Below, piece after piece: positions 3,752 through 18,256 of a stretch of 18,256 nt of DNA. The first letter of the stretch is position 1. Every line of letters begins with the position of its first letter. The DNA comes from a virus. The stretch lies in UHGV virus genome UHGV-0117054; one strand, 5' to 3'. Both the position numbers and the translations under genes were made by a program. The notes under the pieces were generated by a model. It saw only the letters and a list, made by a program, of their open reading frames with translations, searched no databases and was not told the origin of the DNA.

Positions 3752-6688
3752 ATGGCAAAAGAACAAAATGCTGGCAGCGTCGTCTATACGGTAAGCGCTG
3801 AGATCGAGCCCCTACTGATTGCTGGTAAGCAGGCCATTGATGTTCTGGATAAGCTGGATGCAGCCGCTCAACAATCTGGCAAGGGAATGGATAGCCTGGA
3901 CCAGAGTACATCCCATACTGGATCGGCGTTCAACGAACTGGCTGGATATGCCAATTCAATGGATAACCAACTGCGTAAACTGAACACCAATGTAAGCGGC
4001 ATAGCTCGCGCCATGGAAGAAGCTCGCAGCGGTACCGGGGGAGCAAACAGCGAATTCAATCGCGCTGAATCTATCATTGAGGCATTGGGTAACCAGTTGG
4101 CAATACTGGACGAGGCGCAGGAGAATGGTGCTCGCAGCGCTGCAGTGCTGGCAGCCCAGTTGCGCGCTGGCTCTAAAGCCACCGACGAAGAGAAGCAGAA
4201 GATCGGCGAGCTTACTGGTCGCTTATATGACATGAAGACTGGCGTTGAAAATGGCGCAAAAGGCACTGGCAGCTGGAAGTCCAGCATGCAGCAGGCTGGT
4301 TACCAGGTTCAGGACTTCATTATTCAGGTGCAGGGAGGTCAATCTGCGCTGGTGGCTTTCGCTCAGCAGGGCTCTCAGCTTGCTGGCGCATTCGGTCCGG
4401 GCGGTGCGATTGTCGGTTCTATCATTGCGCTGAGCTCGGTTATCGCTGGTGTGCTGATTACTTCGCTCAATGGCGGAAAGAACGCCATGGATGCTCTTAA
4501 GAGCGCTGCTGAAACCATGGATAAGGTTATTACCATTTCACAAAATGGTGTGGCCGCCCTCTCTGATAAATATGCCGCTCTGGCACAGACAAATATTGCT
4601 GTGGCAACCTTGATGAAAAAGCAGGCCGAGCTGGAATTGCAGGCTGCTCTATCAAACGTCTCAAAAGAAGTACAAAAGGCATCGAGTGACTTCATTAGCT
4701 TTGGTGATTCATTGATGTCTTCGCTGGGCGGTGGATATGCCAGCGTAAAATTATTTAATGACTATTTGTCCACGCTAAATATAACCACTAACGATTTCAG
4801 TGAGGCATGGAAGCAGGCAGCTGCCAGCGGGCAGGATGGTCAGTCAACGATGAACTCTATGGTGGCAACTGTTGCGGCCCTGTCTACCAAGTTCGATATT
4901 AGCGATCAGAAAGCTTTTGAGTTTGCTAAGCAACTTTCTGACATAGCGAAAACACCAACTGATGAAAAACTTAAGGCATTGGTTGTGACTCTGCAGGATG
5001 TCGGGAATGGGCAATCTTCTGGCGCGGCTAAGGCCCGGGAATATGCCAAAAGTCTCTTAACCATCATGGAGACAAGCACAGACGCTACTTCACGCCTTAA
5101 GGCTCTGAAAGAGATGACTGATAGCCTGACTTCCAGCCAGGATAAGGCGCTAAAAATCGCTCAGCAGGAGCTGTTTATTGCGCGGCAAACTGGTGAGGCT
5201 CAAATGAAAGCCAAGGCTTGGCGAGATGCCGAAACGCAGGGGCTGAAAGAGGGGACGGAAGCATTCAGGAAATACTACAACGTCAAGCTGGCAACCTATA
5301 AACAGGATGCGGCTAACGCTAACAGCAAGAAGGGAGCCAGTAGCGCTGCGTCAGAAGCTAAGAAGTTAGCCAATCAGCAAGAAACGGTGGCGCAAAAGCT
5401 TGAGAATTTGAGGCAGCAATCAGAGCTGACAGCCAAGTCGACGCAGCAACTCAGCCGCGAGCAGGCCATCCTCACTGCCCAGCAATCCTTGGGTGCAGCA
5501 GCAACTCAAAAAGACCTCGATCTTGCCGGACAGTATGCCGCTGCAAAATGGGATACGGCCAATGCGCTCAAAGCGCAGGCCGCCGCCGAGAAGCTCCTGC
5601 CGGAAGCGCGCGAAAACGCCAGCTATAAGCAGGATGTTGAGGATCTGAATACTGCCCTGACCGCGAAGAAAATCAGCCAGGAACAATACAACGAGACCGC
5701 AGAGCGCCTGGAGGCAACGCACCAGAACAACCTCGCCAAAATCCGTGCGCAGCAGGCAGTAACACCGCAGCAGGAGGCCGCTGGCGGCGTCGACCCGGTG
5801 CAGCAGCTGGCGAATGAGAACGCGCGTAAGCTGGCGCTCATTCAGCAGTACGAGCAGCAGGGCGTATTAACCCACCAGAATGCTTTGGCGCTGCGAGCTG
5901 CTGCTGATACAGAGTACGAGCAGGCGCGCATCGCTGCACAGTGGGAGATTTACCGTAATCAGAGCACTGGCAATGAACTGCTGGCCACCTCGCTGGAAGG
6001 CCTGCAGAGCGGGGCAACCAATGCCCTCACTGGATTAATCAACGGCACCCAGAGCCTGCAGGAGGCAATGGCTAACGTTGGCTCGACCATCATCAACAGC
6101 GTGATCGGCAGCCTCGTAGAAATGGGCATGCAGTGGGTTAAAAATCAGGTGATGGGGCAGGCAGCGGCGGCAGCCTCTCTGGCATCTACCATGGCGCAGG
6201 CAACTGCTGCAGCATCAGCTTGGGCGCCGGCAGCAATGAGTGCGTCGATCGCCACGTACGGCAGCGCCGCTGCTGTTGGTCAATCGGCTTATGCAGCCTC
6301 TCTTCTGTCAGCCAAGGGGTTAGCTGTCGCCGGTGCCCGCGAACACGGCGGGCCGGTCTCGGCCAGCTCCATGTACCGTGTGGGCGAAGGTGGCAAACCT
6401 GAGATTTTCAAAGCCAGCAATGGCAGCCAGTACATGATCCCCGGCGATAACGGTCGCGTCATCAGTAACCGCGATATTGGCGGTAGTGGCGGGGGGGCGT
6501 TCAATTACAGCCCGGTCATTCAGGTTAACGGGGATCCGACTGAGCAGCAGTTGGCCATGCTCGAGGCCGCGGTCAAGCGCGGCGCGCAGCAGGGCTATGC
6601 CATGGCCGTCAGCGACGTCGCCAGCGGCAAAGGAAAACTCTCCAACGCTCTGACCAACAACTTCAACACCAGTCAACGCCTCACATAA
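3752..6688 (+). CDS. Tail tape measure protein
   Basis: 978 aa, Ala/Gln/Glu-rich with long predicted coiled-coil stretches. It has an internal hydrophobic Gly-rich segment (…AFAQQGSQLAGAFGPGGAIVGSIIALSSVIAGVLITSL…). The C-terminal region (…YRVGEGGKPEIF…) resembles the lambda gpH C-terminus as I recall it. Confidence 0.9.
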   Translation: MAKEQNAGSVVYTVSAEIEPLLIAGKQAIDVLDKLDAAAQQSGKGMDSLDQSTSHTGSAFNELAGYANSMDNQLRKLNTNVSGIARAMEEARSGTGGANSEFNRAESIIEALGNQLAILDEAQENGARSAAVLAAQLRAGSKATDEEKQKIGELTGRLYDMKTGVENGAKGTGSWKSSMQQAGYQVQDFIIQVQGGQSALVAFAQQGSQLAGAFGPGGAIVGSIIALSSVIAGVLITSLNGGKNAMDALKSAAETMDKVITISQNGVAALSDKYAALAQTNIAVATLMKKQAELELQAALSNVSKEVQKASSDFISFGDSLMSSLGGGYASVKLFNDYLSTLNITTNDFSEAWKQAAASGQDGQSTMNSMVATVAALSTKFDISDQKAFEFAKQLSDIAKTPTDEKLKALVVTLQDVGNGQSSGAAKAREYAKSLLTIMETSTDATSRLKALKEMTDSLTSSQDKALKIAQQELFIARQTGEAQMKAKAWRDAETQGLKEGTEAFRKYYNVKLATYKQDAANANSKKGASSAASEAKKLANQQETVAQKLENLRQQSELTAKSTQQLSREQAILTAQQSLGAAATQKDLDLAGQYAAAKWDTANALKAQAAAEKLLPEARENASYKQDVEDLNTALTAKKISQEQYNETAERLEATHQNNLAKIRAQQAVTPQQEAAGGVDPVQQLANENARKLALIQQYEQQGVLTHQNALALRAAADTEYEQARIAAQWEIYRNQSTGNELLATSLEGLQSGATNALTGLINGTQSLQEAMANVGSTIINSVIGSLVEMGMQWVKNQVMGQAAAAASLASTMAQATAAASAWAPAAMSASIATYGSAAAVGQSAYAASLLSAKGLAVAGAREHGGPVSASSMYRVGEGGKPEIFKASNGSQYMIPGDNGRVISNRDIGGSGGGAFNYSPVIQVNGDPTEQQLAMLEAAVKRGAQQGYAMAVSDVASGKGKLSNALTNNFNTSQRLT

Positions 6689-8470: not shown

Positions 8471-8851
8471 ATGTTCAATCCCGATAAATACCGTTCTGTC
8501 GAGTGGCAGAAGGGCGGACGCGCTTACCCCGCGCTGGACTGCTTTGGCATCGTCAATGAAATCAGGCGTGACCTTGGCCTGGCTCCGTGGCCTGATTTTG
8601 CCGGGGTTACGAAGGATGATAACGGCCTCGACCGGGAGGCGCGCGGACTGATGGCTGGCCTGACGCGATGTGAGCCTGCCCCGGGCGCGGGTATCGCCTG
8701 TTATTCAGGCTCTGTGGTGACGCACGTTGCCATCGTTGTTGAGATTGATGGCCAGCTTCGCGCCGCGGAGTGCAATCCCCGCACTAACGTAACCTTCCTG
8801 CCGCTGGCGCGGTTTGCGCGCCGCTTTGTTCGCGTGGAGTATTACCAGTGA
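8471..8851 (+). CDS. NlpC/P60-family tail-associated peptidase (lambda gpK C-terminal-domain-like)
   Basis: 126 aa. ALDCFGIV supplies a candidate catalytic Cys and VTHVAIVV a candidate His, spaced as in NlpC/P60 papain-like folds. It sits immediately upstream of the J-like gene with a GTGA stop/start overlap. Confidence 0.65.
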   Translation: MFNPDKYRSVEWQKGGRAYPALDCFGIVNEIRRDLGLAPWPDFAGVTKDDNGLDREARGLMAGLTRCEPAPGAGIACYSGSVVTHVAIVVEIDGQLRAAECNPRTNVTFLPLARFARRFVRVEYYQ

Positions 8852-11800
8852 CGATCCGAATCTATCCCTCACGCCTGCCCGGCGAGCCGCTGGAAAAGCA
8901 CGAACACGAAACGATGACCCTCAGCGCCTGGTTTGCGCGGAACGTGAAGGACTGGGCACCGGATCAGCAGCATCCGGTTGCGGTTGAAATCGACTGTGTC
9001 CCCGTCCCGGCGTCAGAGTGGCCACTGTGCGTTATCAAACGCGAAACCGACGTCAGGATGTATCCGGTGCCGTACGGTACCGGCGCAGAAATCGCGATCT
9101 GGGTTGCCGTCAGCGTAGCCGTTGCCTCTGCTGCGTACAGCATCTACATGATGAGCACAATGTCTCAGGCTGGCGGCGGCGGTGCCCAGGCGGCCAGCGG
9201 CGACCAGATTGACCTCAACCCGGCAAAAGCGAACGCGGCGAAGCTGGGAGACCCCATCCGTGAAATCTTTGGAAAATATCGCGTCTGGCCTGATTACGTC
9301 GTGCAGCCGGTAAGCCGGTTCGTGAACGAGACCAGCATGGAAACCAGCATGTTCCTGTGCGTGGGTGTCGGCGACATGGTGATTAACCAGTCAGATATCC
9401 GGATCGGTAATACGCCGATCTCCGCGTTTGGTACCGACGTGCGTTACACCCTCTACCCGCCTGGCGCCACGGTATCCGGCGATACGCGCACTGAAAACTG
9501 GTTCAATTCACCAGAGGTCGGGAATACCGGTTCCGGTACTGCCGGGCTGGACCTTGGCTCAAGCGGACCGGAGACGGTCAGCATTATCGCTGATGCGCTG
9601 GTCGTGTCAGGGAACTCCATCACGCTGGTTGACGTATCGTCGTCTGGCGATGAGGAGATCCCGCCGTCGTGGACCGTCGGAACGGTGATCACCGTACTGG
9701 CCCCAAATTCGTATACGGTCGTGTCGTCCGGCGGTTACAGCATGATTTATGGCGGGATAGAGGAACTTGCACCTTATGTAGGCATGCCGGTGACGCTGAA
9801 CTATAACGGCAATGACTACGATCTGGTGATTGCCAGCTATGCCCCGGGCGTTCCGGCAGTGCCGGGGGTGGGTGGGAGTGCCGCAACCATAACTGCCAGC
9901 GCCGCGCCGACCACCTACGACTTTAGCACCGCGCCTGTGACGTTCAGCATCAGCTGGCAGGGCACGACTTACCCGGTATCACTGGTCACCAACTACGTCA
10001 CCATGTCAGGCCTGGTTTCCTCGATCACCTCCCAGCTCGCAGGCTCTGGCCTGGTAGCGCGCGATAACAGTGGGCGGCTTGAAATCGGCGAGGCCAGTAG
10101 CCCATATGCTGGCGGGTCCATCACCAACAGCCCGTTACCCGTTGCTGTTTTCGGTGATGCTCCGGTTAATACGGCAGGCGTGAAATCAACGGGCGGCACG
10201 ACGGAGGTCAGGGCGCACATTACCCTGGCTTACAACAGCGCCACCGGTACGCCATTCACAGGGCTGCCAGAGGGAATTCAGCGCTTTTCTCTGGGGCTTG
10301 CCGGCAATCAGTTCCGGATCACCGATGTGGACAGCCAGACCATCACCGTAGAGCGGTTGACTGTCACCACAGGTCCTGGCGGCGAGACGATCACGACGCC
10401 GGATCCATCGTGGCCTGGCTTCACCGAGCGTACGCTGCTGGATGCGACCGTGACGGGTGTCAGTGACGATTACGAATGGGTTGGCCCGTTCCTGGCCTGC
10501 CCGGACGGCGAAACGCTGGACGCATTCGAGGTGAACATCAACTTCCAGAGCGGCCTGGTGCGTTATACCGATAAAGGTAACAAGCGCTCAATGCCCGTTC
10601 GCCTGGTGATCCAGTATCGCAAAGTTGGAACCACCGCCTGGCAGCAGCAGTCCCCGTTCTATTCCCGCAGTACTGAAAACCAGATCGGCTTTACACATCG
10701 CTACAGCGTGTCGCCTGGTCAGTATGAGATCCGGATGCGCAGAACCGAACCGGTTAAGGGCGGCAGCACGCGTGACCAGGTTTTCTGGCAGGCGCTGCGC
10801 TCCCGGCTGAGCAAGCGACCCACTAAGTACGACGGTGTCACTACCATGGCGCTGACCGTGCGCACTGGTAACCGCCTGGCAGCCATGTCCGATCGCCGTA
10901 TAAGCGTCACGCCAACCCGGCTTTACAGCGGCGGCAGAACTGCACGGAGCATCAGCGGCGCGCTTTACCATGTACTCGAGTCGCTTGGGTTCACGACCAG
11001 CCAGATTGACACAGCGGCGATTGATGCTCTGGAGCAAACATACTGGACGCCCCGCGGTGAGAAATTCGACTGGGCGAGCGGCGAGAGCAAGTCCGCACTC
11101 GAGGTGCTGCAGAAAATCACTAACGCAGGGATGGGGTATTTCCTGCTGTCTGATGGACTGGCGTCTGCCGGCAGGGAAGGCATTAAACCCTGGGTAGGCA
11201 TGATTACCCCGCAGGAAACCACCGAGGAGCTGCAGACTGCCTTTAAAGCCCCATCGCAGGACGATTACGACGGTGTGGACGTGACCTATATCAACGGCAC
11301 CACCTGGGCAGAAGAAACCGTGCAGTGTCGCCTGTCTGGCAACCCAACGCCGTTGAAAATCGAGAGCTACACGCTGGATGGTGTTCTGAATGAAGACCGC
11401 GCCTACCGCATCGGCATGCGCCGGTTGCTGGGCTACCAGTTGCAGCGCCTGCAGCACACCACCTCGACCGAGATGGATGCGCTCTGTTATGAGTTCATGG
11501 ATCGTATTGTGCTGGCAGATGATATCCCCGGCAGCGAGACGCTGAGTTGCCTGATTACCGATATGACGTATGACAGCAGCAAAATCACCATGACGCTTAG
11601 TGAGGCCCCGGACTGGTCGTTCCAAAGCCCGCGCGTGATTATCCGCCATCAGGATGGCAGGGCATCAGCCATGCTGGTACCGACACGCATTGACGACTTC
11701 ACCATCTCGGTGCCGTACAGCGCCGTGTTGGAGCCGGAATTGTGGGCTATGAACGACGCGTACATTGAACCACCGCGCCTGCTGTTCTGCTCATCTGTTC

Positions 11801-11931
11801 GGGTGCCGTATGACGCTCTGGTCGGCGAAATATCACCGGGTAACGATGGGATAAGCCAGGTTACGGCTATTCAGTATCACCCAGGAAAGTACGCCTACGA
11901 CGACGCCACATACCCCGGCGACGCCGCTTAA
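8848..11931 (+). CDS. Host specificity / central tail fiber protein (lambda gpJ-like) with an N-terminal gpI-like region
   Basis: 1027 aa with GTG start. The central region (…SPGQYEIRMRRTEPVKGGSTRDQVFWQALRSRL…) resembles the NIRMRRMTP block of lambda J as I recall it. The first ~170 aa have a small domain, then a hydrophobic helix (AEIAIWVAVSVAVASAAYSIYMM) and a Gly-rich linker, like lambda gpI. Confidence 0.85.
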   Translation: MTIRIYPSRLPGEPLEKHEHETMTLSAWFARNVKDWAPDQQHPVAVEIDCVPVPASEWPLCVIKRETDVRMYPVPYGTGAEIAIWVAVSVAVASAAYSIYMMSTMSQAGGGGAQAASGDQIDLNPAKANAAKLGDPIREIFGKYRVWPDYVVQPVSRFVNETSMETSMFLCVGVGDMVINQSDIRIGNTPISAFGTDVRYTLYPPGATVSGDTRTENWFNSPEVGNTGSGTAGLDLGSSGPETVSIIADALVVSGNSITLVDVSSSGDEEIPPSWTVGTVITVLAPNSYTVVSSGGYSMIYGGIEELAPYVGMPVTLNYNGNDYDLVIASYAPGVPAVPGVGGSAATITASAAPTTYDFSTAPVTFSISWQGTTYPVSLVTNYVTMSGLVSSITSQLAGSGLVARDNSGRLEIGEASSPYAGGSITNSPLPVAVFGDAPVNTAGVKSTGGTTEVRAHITLAYNSATGTPFTGLPEGIQRFSLGLAGNQFRITDVDSQTITVERLTVTTGPGGETITTPDPSWPGFTERTLLDATVTGVSDDYEWVGPFLACPDGETLDAFEVNINFQSGLVRYTDKGNKRSMPVRLVIQYRKVGTTAWQQQSPFYSRSTENQIGFTHRYSVSPGQYEIRMRRTEPVKGGSTRDQVFWQALRSRLSKRPTKYDGVTTMALTVRTGNRLAAMSDRRISVTPTRLYSGGRTARSISGALYHVLESLGFTTSQIDTAAIDALEQTYWTPRGEKFDWASGESKSALEVLQKITNAGMGYFLLSDGLASAGREGIKPWVGMITPQETTEELQTAFKAPSQDDYDGVDVTYINGTTWAEETVQCRLSGNPTPLKIESYTLDGVLNEDRAYRIGMRRLLGYQLQRLQHTTSTEMDALCYEFMDRIVLADDIPGSETLSCLITDMTYDSSKITMTLSEAPDWSFQSPRVIIRHQDGRASAMLVPTRIDDFTISVPYSAVLEPELWAMNDAYIEPPRLLFCSSVRVPYDALVGEISPGNDGISQVTAIQYHPGKYAYDDATYPGDAA

Positions 11932-11950: not shown

Positions 11951-11973
11951 ACCCGCTTCGGCGGGTTTTTTTA
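11951..11973 (+). terminator. Intrinsic terminator between J-like gene and tailspike gene
   Basis: acccgc-ttcg-gcgggt hairpin followed by tttttttat. The tailspike SD (ggag) follows directly. Confidence 0.55.
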
Positions 11974-11987
11974 TGCCCGGAGCTAGC

Positions 11988-14432
11988 ATGACCACATATG
12001 CCACGAATAACCCGATAGGGTCCATGGATCCGAAGGACCTTTTCGATAACGCCCAGAATCTGGACTTTGCGGTAAACGATATTACCAAAGCCATCTGGAA
12101 GGACCGTTTTGGGAGGGACAGAAAAACATACTGGGGCATGGAGCAGGCCTTTTCAGCTCAACTTCTAAGCCAGAAGCAGATTGGAGAAGCGCAACTTCAG
12201 AACCAAAAGGAAGAGCTGGATGCGCAGTTACTGTCGCAAGAGCAGCGGTTCAGTTATTTCATTATGAACTCTGGCTACAAATTTGTTGGAGAATACACAG
12301 ATGGGCCTCTAACCGTTACTGACTATAACCAGTTGATTCGCTATCAGAATGAGCTTTATAAGTTAAAGGCCGACACAGCGGTTCCATTTACGACAACCGG
12401 CAAGAATGCCACCTCATGGGTCAATGATTTCGCTCATTTTATCAACGTTGCCGATGCGGCATTAAGGCAGCAAATTGGGGATCCTTACGGGGCTGAAAAA
12501 TACCCAGAACTTCAATTGGCACGTTGGCGTGATGAGGGGGACGTTCGTGGCTGGGGAGCCATTGGTGATGGGTTGAATGATGACACTGATGCCATTTTAT
12601 TATGCTTTGCTGATGCTAAATTACGAGGAGGCCGGACAAAAATCAAGTTCCAGCATGGAACCTACCTTGTTCGAGGAACAAGCCTAATAATCGACTTTCC
12701 AAACGTCTTATTAGAGGGAAATTGGGCAAAACTTAGATTGGTCGACAGTCCGACAGTAATTCAGGGGCCAGTTCTAAAGGTTGCGCAATATGGCAACACG
12801 TCTGTTCGAGGCACGGTAGAAAATGTAACCATCAAAAACCTTGAAATTGATGGCAACAAGCTGAACCAGGTCCAAACCATGAACACGGGAGGGGATGCGA
12901 ACAATCCAGGCTTTGTATCAGAAGACGTGGTGAATCTGCATGTAGAAAATGTTATCTCCCGTAACTGTGACGGATACGGATTTCTCTTCGCTGGCTCTAA
13001 TCTTCCACACCGTAAAGGCGCTTACTTCAAAAACTGCTGGGCACACGGCAACAACGTCGACGGTTTTGACATCAAGGCTGGTTTCAATCATGTCACCCTA
13101 GATAGCTGTCGTTCATGGGATAATGGCTATGCGCCGATGGTTGAACTTCGCTCCGGCATGGGTATCGACATTCGCGGCAAGAACGTCACTCTCCTGAACT
13201 GTGTGGCAGGTGACGAAGGTAGTAATTACGCAGGTAACTTCCGTATCCGTGAAAATGCTCAGGCTGGCATCTCGCTGTTTGGTTGCCACAGCCACAATAG
13301 CCCGGATGGTACTTATGGTTTTATGTGCATTGGTGGTGGTAATACAAATATTTCCTTAGTTAGCTGCACATCCACCAACGATGGCACGTCACTGAAGCAT
13401 GAGCGTGGACATGTCACAGCAGTGGGATTCCGGTCATGGAAACCTCGGCTATTAAGTGTGCTGCAATACCCTTCTCAATTTGTGTTGAGCACACTGACGG
13501 CAGCAGCCACGTTTACTGCCTTTGGTGTATCAGTAACCATTCTCCCGAGCGATTATCTTAGTGCAACCGTGGGGTCTGAAATCAAGATCCCTACTAACAC
13601 CGGTACGATTTACCTACTGGTGAACGAGGCAGTTTCATCGACGCTGGTGTGCACGGTGCTGCGCGGAAATCTGGGGACGGCTGCGGTGGGCGCAAGCATC
13701 ACCACGGTATCGACAGGCAGCCTGACCATAGATGGCGGTATTTCTTATCAGTCTGCCAGCGACGCCATGCAGTTTGCCTCTACGTTACAGACTCTGACGG
13801 ACAGCTCGATGCCAGTAACCATAAATGGCTTTATCATAGAGGCACCAATCCGCTACGGGGTGAACTTCCAGGGTGGTGATGTGAGTTTCTTTGGCGGCGC
13901 AATTCGTAACTGTGGCAAAGGGTCATCCTCCCCTGGATTTTTCGTCGGCAATGCGGCTACTGCTGAATCAACATTCCGGTTGGACAGCGTATTCATGGGG
14001 AATGATGACAAATCATTCACGCAGTCAGCCGGCCTTCAGTTCCAGTCAACAAGCCTGGCGAAAGGGAGCGTTAGAGCGTGTAAATTCGCCGATAATGCCA
14101 ACTCGCCAGTCATTGGCTCGCCATCTTCTGGTGTGCGGTTTGCAGACAATATCGGCTACACCAACGAGGGTACATTCTCTACAACAATTGATGTGACAAC
14201 TGTTGGGGTGAAAACATTCTCAATTCCGCATGGGCTAAGCAAAGCACCTTCTGGTAAAGATGTGCAACTGACCATCCAGCGGTCTGGGGCGGCGAATGAC
14301 TACGTTCTCTCCACTCCGATGATTACCGGAGCAAGCTCTACAATTATTTCTGGAAGGGTGTCCGTACTCACGGCTAGCGCAACCACAGGTGAAGCCGCAA
14401 CAGTAAACGCATTCATCAGCGCCAACCCATAG
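11988..14432 (+). CDS. Tailspike / receptor-binding protein with pectate-lyase-like parallel beta-helix (putative polysaccharide depolymerase); start ATG 11988 preferred over 11973
   Basis: GDVRGWGAIGDGLNDDTDAI matches the GAxGDGxTDDTxAI signature that opens the beta-helix in phage depolymerases. Asn/Gly-rich beta-helix rungs follow (NCDGYGFLFAGSN, NCWAHGNNVDGFDIKAGFN, GKNVTLLNCVAGDEGSNYAGNF, CTSTNDGT). ggag lies 6 nt upstream of ATG 11988. GC is intermediate. Confidence 0.8.
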   Translation: MTTYATNNPIGSMDPKDLFDNAQNLDFAVNDITKAIWKDRFGRDRKTYWGMEQAFSAQLLSQKQIGEAQLQNQKEELDAQLLSQEQRFSYFIMNSGYKFVGEYTDGPLTVTDYNQLIRYQNELYKLKADTAVPFTTTGKNATSWVNDFAHFINVADAALRQQIGDPYGAEKYPELQLARWRDEGDVRGWGAIGDGLNDDTDAILLCFADAKLRGGRTKIKFQHGTYLVRGTSLIIDFPNVLLEGNWAKLRLVDSPTVIQGPVLKVAQYGNTSVRGTVENVTIKNLEIDGNKLNQVQTMNTGGDANNPGFVSEDVVNLHVENVISRNCDGYGFLFAGSNLPHRKGAYFKNCWAHGNNVDGFDIKAGFNHVTLDSCRSWDNGYAPMVELRSGMGIDIRGKNVTLLNCVAGDEGSNYAGNFRIRENAQAGISLFGCHSHNSPDGTYGFMCIGGGNTNISLVSCTSTNDGTSLKHERGHVTAVGFRSWKPRLLSVLQYPSQFVLSTLTAAATFTAFGVSVTILPSDYLSATVGSEIKIPTNTGTIYLLVNEAVSSTLVCTVLRGNLGTAAVGASITTVSTGSLTIDGGISYQSASDAMQFASTLQTLTDSSMPVTINGFIIEAPIRYGVNFQGGDVSFFGGAIRNCGKGSSSPGFFVGNAATAESTFRLDSVFMGNDDKSFTQSAGLQFQSTSLAKGSVRACKFADNANSPVIGSPSSGVRFADNIGYTNEGTFSTTIDVTTVGVKTFSIPHGLSKAPSGKDVQLTIQRSGAANDYVLSTPMITGASSTIISGRVSVLTASATTGEAATVNAFISANP

Positions 14433-14897: not shown

Positions 14898-16727
14898 ATG
14901 ATAAACTTTATTGTTTTAAATGGAAAAAGCGAGTCTGTTAAGAAATTATACGAGACAGCGCAGCAGGCCCTAAAAAGGAACTTAACATTTAAGCCAGTAG
15001 AGGTGGCTAATAAAATATCTGGTAGCGGAGCTTGGGCATATACAGCATGTGGCAATGCGGAAGGCGAAATATCAAAAAGAATAACATCTAAGCAAAGCGG
15101 CGTATGCCTGATAAATGGCCCTGTTTTAAGGATGTGTGATAGCTATGATGTCTCAGATGCCGCACTTGATGCCTCCACCAAAAACGATGCGGAATACATG
15201 TTTGACAATATTTCCGGGTCTTACAACTTCGTTTCAATAACCTCTAAGAATGGCCTCCTTGCTTTCGGCGATTTCTCAGGCACCTGTCCTATTTATTACA
15301 CAATAATTGATGGCGTAACTTGCGTAAGTAACCGGGCATCTGCATTGCATGAACTGCGCGGGAATAGTAAATATAATATTTCTTCTTTGAGCTGGTTAAT
15401 TGGGCATGCCAATATATTTGGCAATGAGTCACCTTTTGAATGCGTGTATTCAATTACAGCTGGTAGCTATTTAAAGTCACCACTTGGTTCAACAACAGTA
15501 AACATCAATAAATTTAAGAATCAGATATGGCCTTCAAATGACGATGCTCAGTATCTGAACGACCTCTCAGGTGATGATTGGGATTTGATAGTAGATGAGT
15601 TGGTGAAAAACTTTAAGGCTGCAAGTGAAAACATTCCCGGCGAACTCCGTTTATCACTCACCGGTGGTAAGGACTCTCGCCTTGTCCTTGCGCTGGCATT
15701 GGGTGCAGGATTCAAAGACAGGATCACCACATTTACGAACGGCCCGGAAGGCAGCCCAGAGATAAGCTGTGCACAGAACATCGCCAACAAAATCGGCGTT
15801 AAGCACGTCGCTAACGTTAAGGCTCCACAAGTTAAAGCTCAGGATTTTGCTAATTCATGGGAAAAACTTAACTGGCATTCCTACAGAATGGAAAGTTATA
15901 TTTGCCCATGGGATGGAGCAACAGCTGAACGCACCATCAAAAATATAACGTCCGATATGACTGGCTTTGGCGGCGAGCTATATCGCGGACCCGGCGGACA
16001 CGCCAAGCAGTTTAAAAACCTGTCCTTTATGGACAATAAAGATGCAATTCTTTCTAAGTTCATAAACTACCATCAGAAGATGGATCCATTAAACATTCTC
16101 TCCAGTTTGTATAAAAACGCTCAAATAGGTTGGTTCTACGGCTGGCTTGAGGAGAATATTAAATCTGTAAGGTTTGATGTTTTACCTGAGAAGTTCTTCG
16201 TAGAAAACCGTCTTTCCAATTGGAACGGCCCTCTTGCTCAGAACGTCACAGGCAGAATTAAACTGATGCCACTTCTCTCTCCTAAAGTTGCGCGTTTGGT
16301 ATTCAAGCTCAGCCCGGAGGCCAGGAACAAAGAATTGTTCCACTACAGCGTCATGGCAAAGCTGGCTCCTGAATTAGTTTCTCTGCCATTTTTGAATGCG
16401 ACATGGGATAAATCATTGCAGGGTAGATTTGGCCTTGATATCGCAGATGCTCCTTATGATAGCGGGGTTAAATTCACGCCAAGGTCTGTGCAAGCATGGC
16501 AGGCTCAATTTGTCGAAGGTCAGCGAGAAGAAATCGTGCACTTGCTTGAAAGAGCCGCCGAATATACAAACATCAGAGAGATATTTGACGTCGATAAATT
16601 ATGCGAGTACGTCCGGGAAAAGGAAGGGATGAACACCATAGAAATCAAAACTATCCTCTCCTCAATTGCTGTTGCCATTACCTTGCTGAATGATCAGGAA
16701 AGCGTAGAGGACCTTGGCCAGGTGTAA
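14898..16727 (+). CDS. Asparagine synthetase (AsnB) family amidoligase-like protein; N-terminal domain lacks the Cys nucleophile
   Basis: 609 aa. PP-loop SLTGGKDS at residues ~254-260 (AsnB has SGGLDS near 234-239). TGFGGELYRG matches the AsnB GEGxDExFGGY block and GRIKLMPLLSP the E-x-R-x-PFLD block. FGDFSGTCPIYY matches the RDxxGxKPLYY motif of the N-terminal domain. It starts MINF…, not MC…. GC is about 38-40%. Confidence 0.75.
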   Translation: MINFIVLNGKSESVKKLYETAQQALKRNLTFKPVEVANKISGSGAWAYTACGNAEGEISKRITSKQSGVCLINGPVLRMCDSYDVSDAALDASTKNDAEYMFDNISGSYNFVSITSKNGLLAFGDFSGTCPIYYTIIDGVTCVSNRASALHELRGNSKYNISSLSWLIGHANIFGNESPFECVYSITAGSYLKSPLGSTTVNINKFKNQIWPSNDDAQYLNDLSGDDWDLIVDELVKNFKAASENIPGELRLSLTGGKDSRLVLALALGAGFKDRITTFTNGPEGSPEISCAQNIANKIGVKHVANVKAPQVKAQDFANSWEKLNWHSYRMESYICPWDGATAERTIKNITSDMTGFGGELYRGPGGHAKQFKNLSFMDNKDAILSKFINYHQKMDPLNILSSLYKNAQIGWFYGWLEENIKSVRFDVLPEKFFVENRLSNWNGPLAQNVTGRIKLMPLLSPKVARLVFKLSPEARNKELFHYSVMAKLAPELVSLPFLNATWDKSLQGRFGLDIADAPYDSGVKFTPRSVQAWQAQFVEGQREEIVHLLERAAEYTNIREIFDVDKLCEYVREKEGMNTIEIKTILSSIAVAITLLNDQESVEDLGQV

Positions 16728-16761
16728 CGCCAGCCGGGATTATTGATAGGTATCGCCTCAT

Positions 16762-16819
16762 TGATCTGCACCTCCTTTAAAACTACTGTATATAAAAACA
16801 GTAAAAGGAGTGCAGATCA
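16762..16819. repeat. Inverted repeat bracketing the SOS box and the start of the downstream ORF
   Basis: tgatctgcac at 16762-16771 and its reverse complement gtgcagatca at 16810-16819, extended by tcc/gga with a one-base bulge. The arms flank the LexA box, and the right arm overlaps the GTG at 16810. Confidence 0.4.
16784..16803. promoter_or_regulatory. LexA operator (SOS box) in an AT-rich promoter region
   Basis: TACTGTATATAAAAACAGTA is a perfect CTGT-N8-ACAG palindrome with an AT-only spacer. From memory it matches the strong E. coli umuDC operator. It lies directly upstream of the 16810 and 17058 ORFs. Confidence 0.7.
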
Positions 16820-17058
16820 TACCCCGCCAATCAGACATTCACAGCGCATTTGTCGCTGCAGTACAGCAAAACCCAAAGGGTTATCAGTGCCTTCATACGA
16901 ACGACTTCATCCGTGAGTTGCGCGCGAGAAACTGGCATTTCAGCCAGGTCGACGCCAACGAGTGGATCCAGCGCTATCAAGAGTTCTTTGTCGACAAGAC
17001 GCCTGACCACAGTGAAAACCGTCTCTGGATGCTACGTAACATGGGGAGGGTTCTGTAA
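16810..17058 (+). CDS. Hypothetical 82-aa protein, first ORF downstream of the SOS box (start uncertain)
   Basis: GTG start with the SD too close (aaaaggag immediately before it). Its stop overlaps the ATG of the UmuD'-like gene (TAATG). No recognisable motifs. Confidence 0.3.
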   Translation: MQIIPRQSDIHSAFVAAVQQNPKGYQCLHTNDFIRELRARNWHFSQVDANEWIQRYQEFFVDKTPDHSENRLWMLRNMGRVL

Positions 17059-17453
17059 TGGGCTTCCCTTCGCCGGCTGGCGACTATGTAGAGCAGCGGT
17101 TAACTCCGGAGCGAATCTGCGGTGTTGGCGTCGACACTCGCATCCTGGAAACCTCATCCGGCTTTGCCGTTATCGAGCCGTGCACCAGGCTGGTACAGAA
17201 TCAGGTTCTGCTGATTTTATCTGGCGGCAGAACGCAGTTTGCCCGGGTAATGGGTAGGGCATTAATCACTGATGATGGTGAAGCGATCGAAGGGGAGGAG
17301 GCGGAGGAAGTTGAGGTGCTGGGGCGCGTGACGTTCTTCATCAACAGCGCGCTACAGGATGACAGGGTGGGTGATGGGTGGCATTACGCCACCTTTTCAT
17401 CAAGCCAGTCCGCCCACCACTGCATCATTTCTCTGCGCTTATCGAGATACTGA
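17058..17453 (+). CDS. UmuD'-like (peptidase S24-fold) protein, natively leaderless and likely catalytically degenerate
   Basis: N-terminus MGFPSPAGDYVEQR matches the UmuD segment right after the Cys24-Gly25 cleavage site (CGFPSPAADYVEQR), so the ORF begins where processed UmuD' begins. An in-frame stop lies 18 nt upstream. The SGDSM serine motif and the catalytic KK region are not recognisable. GGAGG sits 7 nt before the ATG. The last ~23 codons overlap the integrase 3' end. Confidence 0.6.
   Translation: MGFPSPAGDYVEQRLTPERICGVGVDTRILETSSGFAVIEPCTRLVQNQVLLILSGGRTQFARVMGRALITDDGEAIEGEEAEEVEVLGRVTFFINSALQDDRVGDGWHYATFSSSQSAHHCIISLRLSRY
17377..17398 (+). terminator. Hairpin plus T-tract at the convergent junction with the integrase (possible + strand terminator)
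   Basis: ggtggc-attac-gccacc stem-loop followed by tttt. It lies inside the C-terminal extension of the UmuD'-like ORF and over the integrase stop codon. Confidence 0.35.
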
Positions 17454-18256
17454 GCATGGTTGTAAATCCCGCGCACAGATCCGCCGTTGGCATGTGCCAG
17501 TTGCACTTCAATAGCATCAGCAGGCCATTCGTGCTCGTTCATAATCGTGCTGAATTCATGCCTGAATCCGTGACCGCTTTCCAGACCCTCATAGCCGATT
17601 TGTTTGATCACAAGCAATACCGCGTTCTCGCAGATTGGCTTCTTCTTATCGTTGCGCCCGGCAAAAACAAACTCTGATACTGGTTTAGTGATTGAGCTTA
17701 GCGTAGTGAGAAGTTCAACCACCTGGTCTGACATCGGGACCACATGAATTTTGCGTCCCTTCATCACACTGGCGTCGATGGTGATAATCCTGTTTTCAAA
17801 ATCGACGTTCTTCCATAGCATGGAACGAAGCTCTTTCGTTCTTAGGGCTGTGTAGCGTAAAACTTTGGTCGCAATGAGCGATACGATACTTCCTGAAAAT
17901 GTTGCCAGTGCTTTGTTGAATGCCGGGATCTGGTCTGCAGGAAGAAACGGGAAGTTCTTCTTGCGGTATCCCTTCATGGCGTCAGCAAGGTCAGGTGCCG
18001 GGTTATATTTAGCCCTTCCGGTGACAATAGCGTAACGGAAAACCTCGCCGCATCTTCTGCGTGCTTTGTTGGCTCGCTCCATTGCACCGCGATCTTCAAA
18101 TCTGCGGATTACTTCCAGCAGTTGCATCGGCTCAATATCCTGAATCTCAAGGCCGCCGATGATGGGTAAAATGTCGTCATCAAACATTTTTGCAAGTTCA
18201 GTTGCATAGCCTACTGACCAGACTTGCTTCTTGTGCTCGTACCATTCCTTGTAAAT
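17384..18256 (-). CDS. int: Tyrosine recombinase / phage integrase (P4-type), N-terminus beyond the window edge
   Basis: The reverse frame stays open to the window end (…IYKEWYEHKKQVWSVGYATELAKMFDDD…). The C-terminal catalytic region has HGFRHEFST (HxxR) and VRGIYNHAQYLD (catalytic Tyr), ending …QWWADWLDEKVA. Confidence 0.9.
   Translation of the reverse strand: MYKEWYEHKKQVWSVGYATELAKMFDDDILPIIGGLEIQDIEPMQLLEVIRRFEDRGAMERANKARRRCGEVFRYAIVTGRAKYNPAPDLADAMKGYRKKNFPFLPADQIPAFNKALATFSGSIVSLIATKVLRYTALRTKELRSMLWKNVDFENRIITIDASVMKGRKIHVVPMSDQVVELLTTLSSITKPVSEFVFAGRNDKKKPICENAVLLVIKQIGYEGLESGHGFRHEFSTIMNEHEWPADAIEVQLAHANGGSVRGIYNHAQYLDKRREMMQWWADWLDEKVA

Follow-up and report, generated by a model that had tools for sequence, protein, structure and literature searches.

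Genes at the right end of the window

The stretch of DNA analysed here, called the window, is 18,256 nucleotides of the virus genome UHGV-0117054 (Table 1). Genes for a siphovirus-type tail are followed by a cargo ORF and by a cassette of two small genes, and the right end is occupied by part of a tyrosine integrase gene (int) on the opposite strand. The original prediction, made from the window alone, had described the tail genes, the cargo and the integrase as contiguous, and it had placed the integrase stop codon within the last 70 nucleotides or so of a UmuD′-like ORF, over a hairpin and a T-tract. The gene order agrees with the former statement, and the coordinates and the folding agree with the latter; the two ORFs overlap by exactly 70 nt, from 17384 to 17453.

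Table 1. Features of the window and the basis on which each was placed
Feature	Position	Strand	Basis or remark
Tape measure gene	3752-6688		siphovirus-type tail
TipJ-like gene	8848-11931		siphovirus-type tail
Beta-helix fibre gene	11973-14432		tail
609-aa cargo ORF	14898-16727		between the fibre gene and the cassette
58-nt palindrome around the LexA (SOS) box	16762-16819	+	inverted repeat I2
Perfect 20-nt LexA box TACTGTATATAAAAACAGTA (CTGT-N8-ACAG)	16784-16803	+	exact match, 0 expected by chance
First cassette gene, 79 aa	16819-17058	+	PHROG 3893 at 4.9e-42
UmuD′-like ORF as read in the window	17058-17453	+	131 codons/131 aa
Native UmuD′-like gene	17058-17374	+	105 codons in intact relatives; PHROG 3469, intact junctions
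Single-T deletion	17370-17371	+	window compared base by base with L098, L100 and L003
Frameshift extension, 26 codons (..DGWHYATFSSSQSAHHCIISLRLSRY)	17375-17453	+	antisense to the last int codons
Mosaic joint, LexA/UmuD′-like cassette to IntS module	17375-17377		homology ends/starts
Hairpin GGGTGGC-ATTAC-GCCACCT, then TTTT	17376-17397	+	folding; possible weak intrinsic terminator
Integrase stop codon	17384-17386	-	ORF list
IntS-type tyrosine integrase gene, 3′ three-quarters, 290 codons + stop	17384-18256	-	Pfam, DNA identity

The left arm of the palindrome around the LexA box contains a -35-like TTGATC, and the right arm contains both the Shine-Dalgarno sequence (AAGGAG) and the start codon that belong to the first cassette gene. 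As RNA, the palindrome folds at -28 kcal/mol (z = -9.2). The LexA box is conserved in the related loci L002-L005, L014-L016, L098 and L100, and the cassette is predicted to be a LexA-box-controlled gene pair with its own SOS-repressed promoter. In a transcript that comes through from the tail genes, the ribosome-binding site would be buried in the palindrome, whereas in a transcript from the LexA-controlled promoter it would not. The stop codon of the 79-aa ORF overlaps the start codon of the UmuD′-like gene (TAATG), and NCBI's PGAP annotates 240-nt CDSs for this ORF in relatives. Its start codon (16819-16821) is ATA in the window, in the E. coli N9 prophage, in 1008S19 and in L022/L101, but ATG in most relatives, including those with an intact junction and L102. 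Some relatives lack the 79-aa ORF (L004:11951-12298; L105:13192 onward), and there the LexA box and the ribosome-binding site feed the UmuD′-like gene directly. The two ORFs are fused in P0168 and at L015:3761-4240.

The 609-aa cargo ORF is weakly similar to PP-loop ATPases of the asparagine synthase/QueC type (Pfam 4e-4 and TIGR01536 2e-9, all below the cut-offs). Its slot is taken by an acyltransferase in 1008S19, and the ORF is absent from the relatives at the yciB site described below. PADLOC returned no match for this ORF or for the cassette proteins. To a small tail gene upstream of the TipJ-like gene (8471-8851, corresponding to L005:11629-12009), PGAP gives the name 'nitrite transporter' in several genomes, and in one further genome it gives the name 'CHAP domain-containing protein'; this naming looks like a propagated annotation error.

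The integrase matches the Pfam families Phage_integrase (2.8e-39) and Phage_int_M (6e-27). At the DNA level, positions 17377-18256 show 96-98% identity with int from N7, HK620, IME10, Sf6, CUS-3 and HK633, and the same range of identity extends to the intS genes of about 2500 E. coli genomes. The int start codon should fall outside the window, near 18541; in N9 and 1008S19, the intS gene has a length of 1158 nt. Judged by this identity, the integrase belongs to the IntS/TorI recombination module of KplE1 (CPS-53), HK620 and Sf6, and the KplE1 IntS module is known to be shared by HK620, Sf6 and CUS-3 (PMC2951348). In the window, the module is joined to a siphovirus-type prophage with tape measure and TipJ genes and not to a P22-like podovirus.

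Origin of the 70-nt overlap

Is the overlap an original property of the two genes? In intact relatives, the joint reads ...AGG GTG GTG TGA TGGGTGGCATTAC..., the UmuD′-like gene has 104-105 codons, and 9 nt separate its stop codon from that of int. The window has lost a single T, by which GGTGGTGTGA is turned into GGTGGGTGA, shifting the frame just ahead of the native stop codon of the UmuD′-like gene. Thus, the native TGA at 17372-17374 is out of frame, the ORF runs on for 26 extra codons, and the 70-nt overlap results. The intact joint is present in E. coli 19KM1803 and EC102 and in eight IMG/VR contigs, and the loci L098, L100 and L105-L110 have an intact junction that differs from the window by one T. 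The T-less allele (GGTGGGTGA) is found in the window, in N9, in 1008S19 and in two IMG/VR contigs, a string search of IMG/VR having returned the intact junction in 8 contigs and the frameshifted one in 2. The overlap, as read from these alignments, is a by-product of two closely spaced stop codons rather than a designed feature. For annotation, the 131-codon ORF is better read as a frameshifted 105-codon gene; PGAP tags the UmuD′-like gene as a pseudogene in both N9 and 1008S19.

A missing base may also be an assembly or sequencing error, in which case the true genes would be separate and would not overlap. The difference is indeed a single base within a G/T-rich stretch. However, the same deletion is found in N9, in 1008S19, in the two IMG/VR contigs and in four database proteins from different sources, and its site is outside any long homopolymer, so that an error is extremely unlikely.

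Losses of a stop codon were also seen at related loci. EC102 has a mirror accident (L100:1211-1234), in which the int stop codon TAA is changed to GAA, IntS is longer by 11 residues, and the extended int overlaps the intact UmuD′-like gene by 24 nt. At locus L028, a 129-aa HumD-like gene is likewise without its stop codon and now encodes 149 aa. In several E. coli genomes (H34-H36), an IS1 element is inserted in the UmuD′-like gene beside intS, and the match resumes at window position 17176.

The hairpin over the integrase stop codon pairs 17376-17382 with 17388-17394 and is followed by TTTT at 17394-17397, and the int stop codon is found, as its complement, in the loop (17383-17387, ATTAC). 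If the stem is extended outward by 5 bp, the folding energy is -18.0 kcal/mol on the + strand (z = -3.0; 2/200 shuffles were as good), and the same hairpin has -14.4 kcal/mol (z = -3.5) on the - strand. A simple terminator consensus scan of the window did not list the hairpin at 17376-17397. Of 42 distinct IntS 3′ ends, the majority have an equivalent stop-codon hairpin; in a sizeable minority it is degraded. Covariation was sought in this hairpin, and one compensated pair (C:G versus A:T) and many stem-breaking variants were found, which gives no firm signal. The usual 3′ flank of IntS genes, about 80 nt, consists of the stop-codon hairpin and then a long terminator hairpin; the window keeps only the first, and the UmuD′-like cassette takes the place of the rest, directly after the stop-codon hairpin. 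The hairpin and its T-tract may end the SOS-induced cassette transcript ahead of an antisense run into int.

It might be supposed that the overlap is functional: the 26-residue tail could add a property to the protein, or translation through the hairpin could let SOS transcription run antisense into int and so tune excision. Ribosomes that read through a terminator hairpin do suppress termination, and the frameshift allele is found in several independent assemblies, with cassettes down to 84% identical in protein sequence. Since the cassettes that carry the allele are just 84-92% identical at the protein level, it is no very recent private mutation, and it could be tolerated or even useful. 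Nevertheless, nearly all homologues are of normal length: among the best 120 of 1057, they have 104-107 aa except P0001-P0004, P0066 and P0082, and the 26-residue extension itself occurs only in P0001-P0004. The sequence of the tail is, moreover, dictated by the int codons on the other strand. The ATA start codon of the upstream gene in the same lineage and the pseudogene tag also point away from a function. The window's lineage thus seems to carry two weakening changes in the cassette, the ATA start codon and the frameshift, which together look like decay. A function of the overlap is improbable, and the extension would be a tolerated or degenerative change.

The module joint and the attachment site

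The joint of the cassette and the integrase gene is also a joint of two homologies. Prophages at the yciA/yciB site match the window from the tail genes to 17374-17375 and not beyond, and the int-module matches of N7, HK620 and IME10 start at 17377. A module junction had been predicted somewhere within 16728-17460; a junction does exist there, as a mosaic joint at 17375-17377, but it is neither an attachment site nor the boundary of an element. By these matches it is ordinary mosaicism between two exchangeable phage modules arranged tail to tail. A crossover with an arrangement of a 129-aa HumD-like gene and IntS (GTGATGTAGGTGGC) was considered as the origin of the joint and dropped, as the intact joints differ from the window by a single T.

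The sister prophages FDAARGOS_1250 and MDK9L1 (E. coli, yciA/yciB site) share the tail genes and the LexA-box cassette with the window, at about 90% identity as far as position 17375, but carry a different tyrosine integrase at the opposite end of the prophage. Their UmuD′-like gene is the last gene and is intact at 105 aa. Right after its stop codon the attP arm starts, and the core TCTTCCTG(C/A)GGCAT lies 142 nt past the stop codon, inside the end of yciB, as seen by comparison with the empty K-12 site. A strong hairpin after the UmuD′-like gene of these prophages was first taken for the host yciB terminator; the empty K-12 site shows that it is phage DNA of the attP arm. In the lineage of the window, the whole yciB-type att/int module has been replaced by an IntS module in the opposite orientation. 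One and the same cassette is followed by an attP arm in the yciB-site prophages and by the 3′ end of an inverted int in the window's lineage, a clean example of an integration-module swap at a gene boundary.

Where is the attachment site of the window's element? For KplE1, a 16-nt core, CTGCAGGGGACACCAT, has been studied experimentally, and the intS promoter overlaps attL (Panis et al., PMC2951348). In this module, int is the terminal gene, placed downstream of a tRNA gene and on the same strand, and the recombination directionality factor gene (TorI/HkaC) is at the opposite end (PMC2951348). The 16-nt core is the 3′ end of the tRNA gene argW. I found it about 160 nt upstream of int in N9, 1008S19, HK620, Sf6, N7 and HK633; the HK620 and Sf6 records give a distance of 161 nt from the attP core to the int start codon downstream of it. 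Two of these carry the window's own joint. E. coli N9 has a P22-like prophage with an identical cassette and an identical cassette-int joint, and E. coli 1008S19, the closest full-length relative, contains a prophage that agrees with the window in tail genes, cassette and joint. The order in both is cassette, intS, tRNA-Arg (argW) and yfdC, and 162 nt separate intS from the tRNA gene upstream of it. The core, ATGGTGTCCCCTGCAG, occurs twice in 1008S19, at argW and beside torI, 41.3 kb apart. The close relatives of the window therefore share with the argW-integrating phages the core, the spacing between int and argW, an int gene that stands last and points away from the tRNA gene, and a torI gene at the far end of the prophage. 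Placed from these relatives, the attachment core of the window's element is expected at about 18702-18717, some 446 nt to the right of the last position of the window. Because the core lies upstream of the int start codon and past the window end, the region 17377-17460 would lie inside the element, whether integrated or circular.

It had been proposed that attP lies near the 3′ end of int, as in lambda or P22; the hairpin and overlap region, or a site just downstream of int, would then be the recombination site with core and arms. The resemblance is real: cargo genes stand between the tail genes and a leftward-transcribed int whose 3′ end faces the cargo, and in the yciA/yciB sister prophages an attP arm does start right after the UmuD′-like stop codon. 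A lambda-like layout therefore exists among the relatives, but not in this element. In lambda, attP is beyond the 3′ end of int, whereas here it is beyond the 5′ end, so that integration never splits the joint of cargo and int. A search of the window for a copy of the core, tRNA genes, tmRNA genes, Rfam families and att-like direct repeats returned none, and no core with arms lies between the int stop codon and the cargo gene; the two core copies of the 1008S19 prophage are at argW and beside torI. In addition, phages with the same int have unrelated sequences past the int stop codon, which an arm-bearing attP would not allow. With the att sites mapped elsewhere in close relatives and this region internal in them, which is the outcome that the original prediction had itself named as its refutation, an attP at the int 3′ end has next to no chance of being correct.

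A second proposal was that the integrase belongs to an adjacent element; this might be a tandem or remnant prophage, with its boundary at 17375-17377. The homology does break abruptly there, and the same cassette ends the yciB-site prophages, whose integrase sits at the other end. On the other hand, everything in the 1008S19 prophage from torI through the early and late genes to the cassette and intS lies between a single pair of cores, and this stretch contains no second integrase. The identical cassette-int joint also occurs in the P22-like N9 prophage and in 10 IMG/VR contigs, indicating that cassette and integrase gene travel as a unit. Separate elements are thus very unlikely, and for annotation the prophage boundary should be set at argW beyond int, not at the joint of cargo and int.

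The reading that very probably holds for the locus as a whole, on the comparisons above, is a tail-to-tail module joint with the IntS attachment core beyond the int 5′ end and with an overlap produced by a one-T frameshift. The left module is a cargo cassette with a predicted SOS-repressed promoter, the 79-aa ORF and a 105-aa UmuD′-like protein without catalytic residues. The right module, on the opposite strand, is an IntS-type integration module, with int as the last prophage gene, transcribed away from the argW core. At the ancestral joint, the stop codons are 9 nt apart, and the loop of a short hairpin contains that of int; in the window's lineage, one T was lost before the UmuD′-like TGA, and translation runs 26 codons on, antisense to the end of int. 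The module boundaries, the position of the attachment site in the relatives and the T deletion are directly supported. The locus adds one more case of this well-known integration module, joined here to a widespread cargo cassette that is uncharacterised.

Two minor observations concern other att-like sequences. The HK633 record (L006:1320-1400) has an 'attP' labelled between stf and int that is similar to the ykgJ-yagV spacer; HK633 also has the Sf6/HK620-type 16-nt core (L006:2814-2829), upstream of its IntS-type int, and the labelled 'attP' may be a leftover of an earlier integration module. The int coding sequence of the window contains GGGTAAAAT (18164-18172, + strand), a copy of the HK620 'attP' repeat (repeat_region 829-839), about 530 nt from the expected attachment core.

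The UmuD′-like protein

The UmuD′-like protein matches PHROG 3469 at 1e-44, over positions 1-103 of the 106-position profile. Its N-terminus, MGFPSPAGDYVEQ (residues 1-13), is the sequence that follows the UmuD cleavage site and corresponds to the post-cleavage GFPSPAADYVEQ arm, and M1, G2, F3, S5 and P6 are nearly invariant in the family alignment. The HumD and UmuD models match residues 1-21; the NCBIfam HumD model gives 28 bits against a cut-off of 120, below the family threshold and over the first 21 residues or so only. No match was found in Pfam, including S24. The family profile matches UmuD in the PDB (8gmt) with E = 1e-12. In an AlphaFold model (pLDDT 78.8), the top Foldseek matches in the PDB are the UmuD′ structures 1umu and 1ay9, with a TM-score of about 0.6 and an E-value of only about 4e-3, followed by LexA C-terminal domains. 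The protein is predicted from this model to have the beta fold of the LexA/UmuD C-terminal domain. The catalytic dyad is missing: when the family profile is aligned with UmuD, the positions of Ser60 and Lys97 are taken by an aromatic residue (F36) and by Ala62, respectively, and 11 residues after the Ser motif are deleted.

UmuD′ is the processed accessory subunit of DNA polymerase V. P1 HumD, a subject of McLenigan and colleagues in 1999, is reportedly a functional homologue of UmuD′. The window's protein resembles P1 HumD and host UmuD′ in starting at the residue of the UmuD cleavage site (MGFPSPAxDYVEQ), in its predicted fold and in the LexA box ahead of its gene, but it has 105 aa in contrast to about 115-129 for the latter. 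By analogy, the cassette may act in the SOS response as a source or a mimic of UmuD′; in the proposed scheme, a UmuD′-like factor would be provided at that time. It is also conceivable, though rather doubtful, that the cassette encodes a phage effector timed by the SOS response, in place of a plain HumD-style aid to polymerase V. Such an effector could be a decoy binding to UmuD/UmuD′, UmuC or the RecA filament, or it could pair with a phage repressor through the repressor's S24-type C-terminal domain. Under the effector reading, the frameshift allele could alter the read-through into int.

Is the position of the UmuD′-like gene next to int common? In 8 of 80 IntS loci from IMG/VR, a UmuD′-like gene is convergent on int, with gaps between the genes from -70 to +73 nt. 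These genes belong either to the 105-aa family or to a 129-aa HumD-like family, and the recurrence of two families convergent to IntS hints at a selected position next to int. A search of genome contigs with the UmuD′-like protein gave 6 loci, most of which have host-like genes right after the cassette; one of the six has an integrase gene on the same strand. A literature search found no published study of the LexA/79-aa/UmuD′-like cassette. The SOS-controlled UmuD′-like cassette is widespread and uncharacterised (about 1000 sequence clusters, Enterobacteriaceae), and it is the sole part of the locus with research potential.

HumD-like proteins of 128-129 aa (MGFPSPAxDYVEQRISLD...DDCPVM) are encoded convergent on the IntS 3′ end at L029, L090, L084, L059 and L028. 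At L029 and L090, the HumD-like stop codon is followed at once by a GGTGGC..GCCACC hairpin and TTTT.
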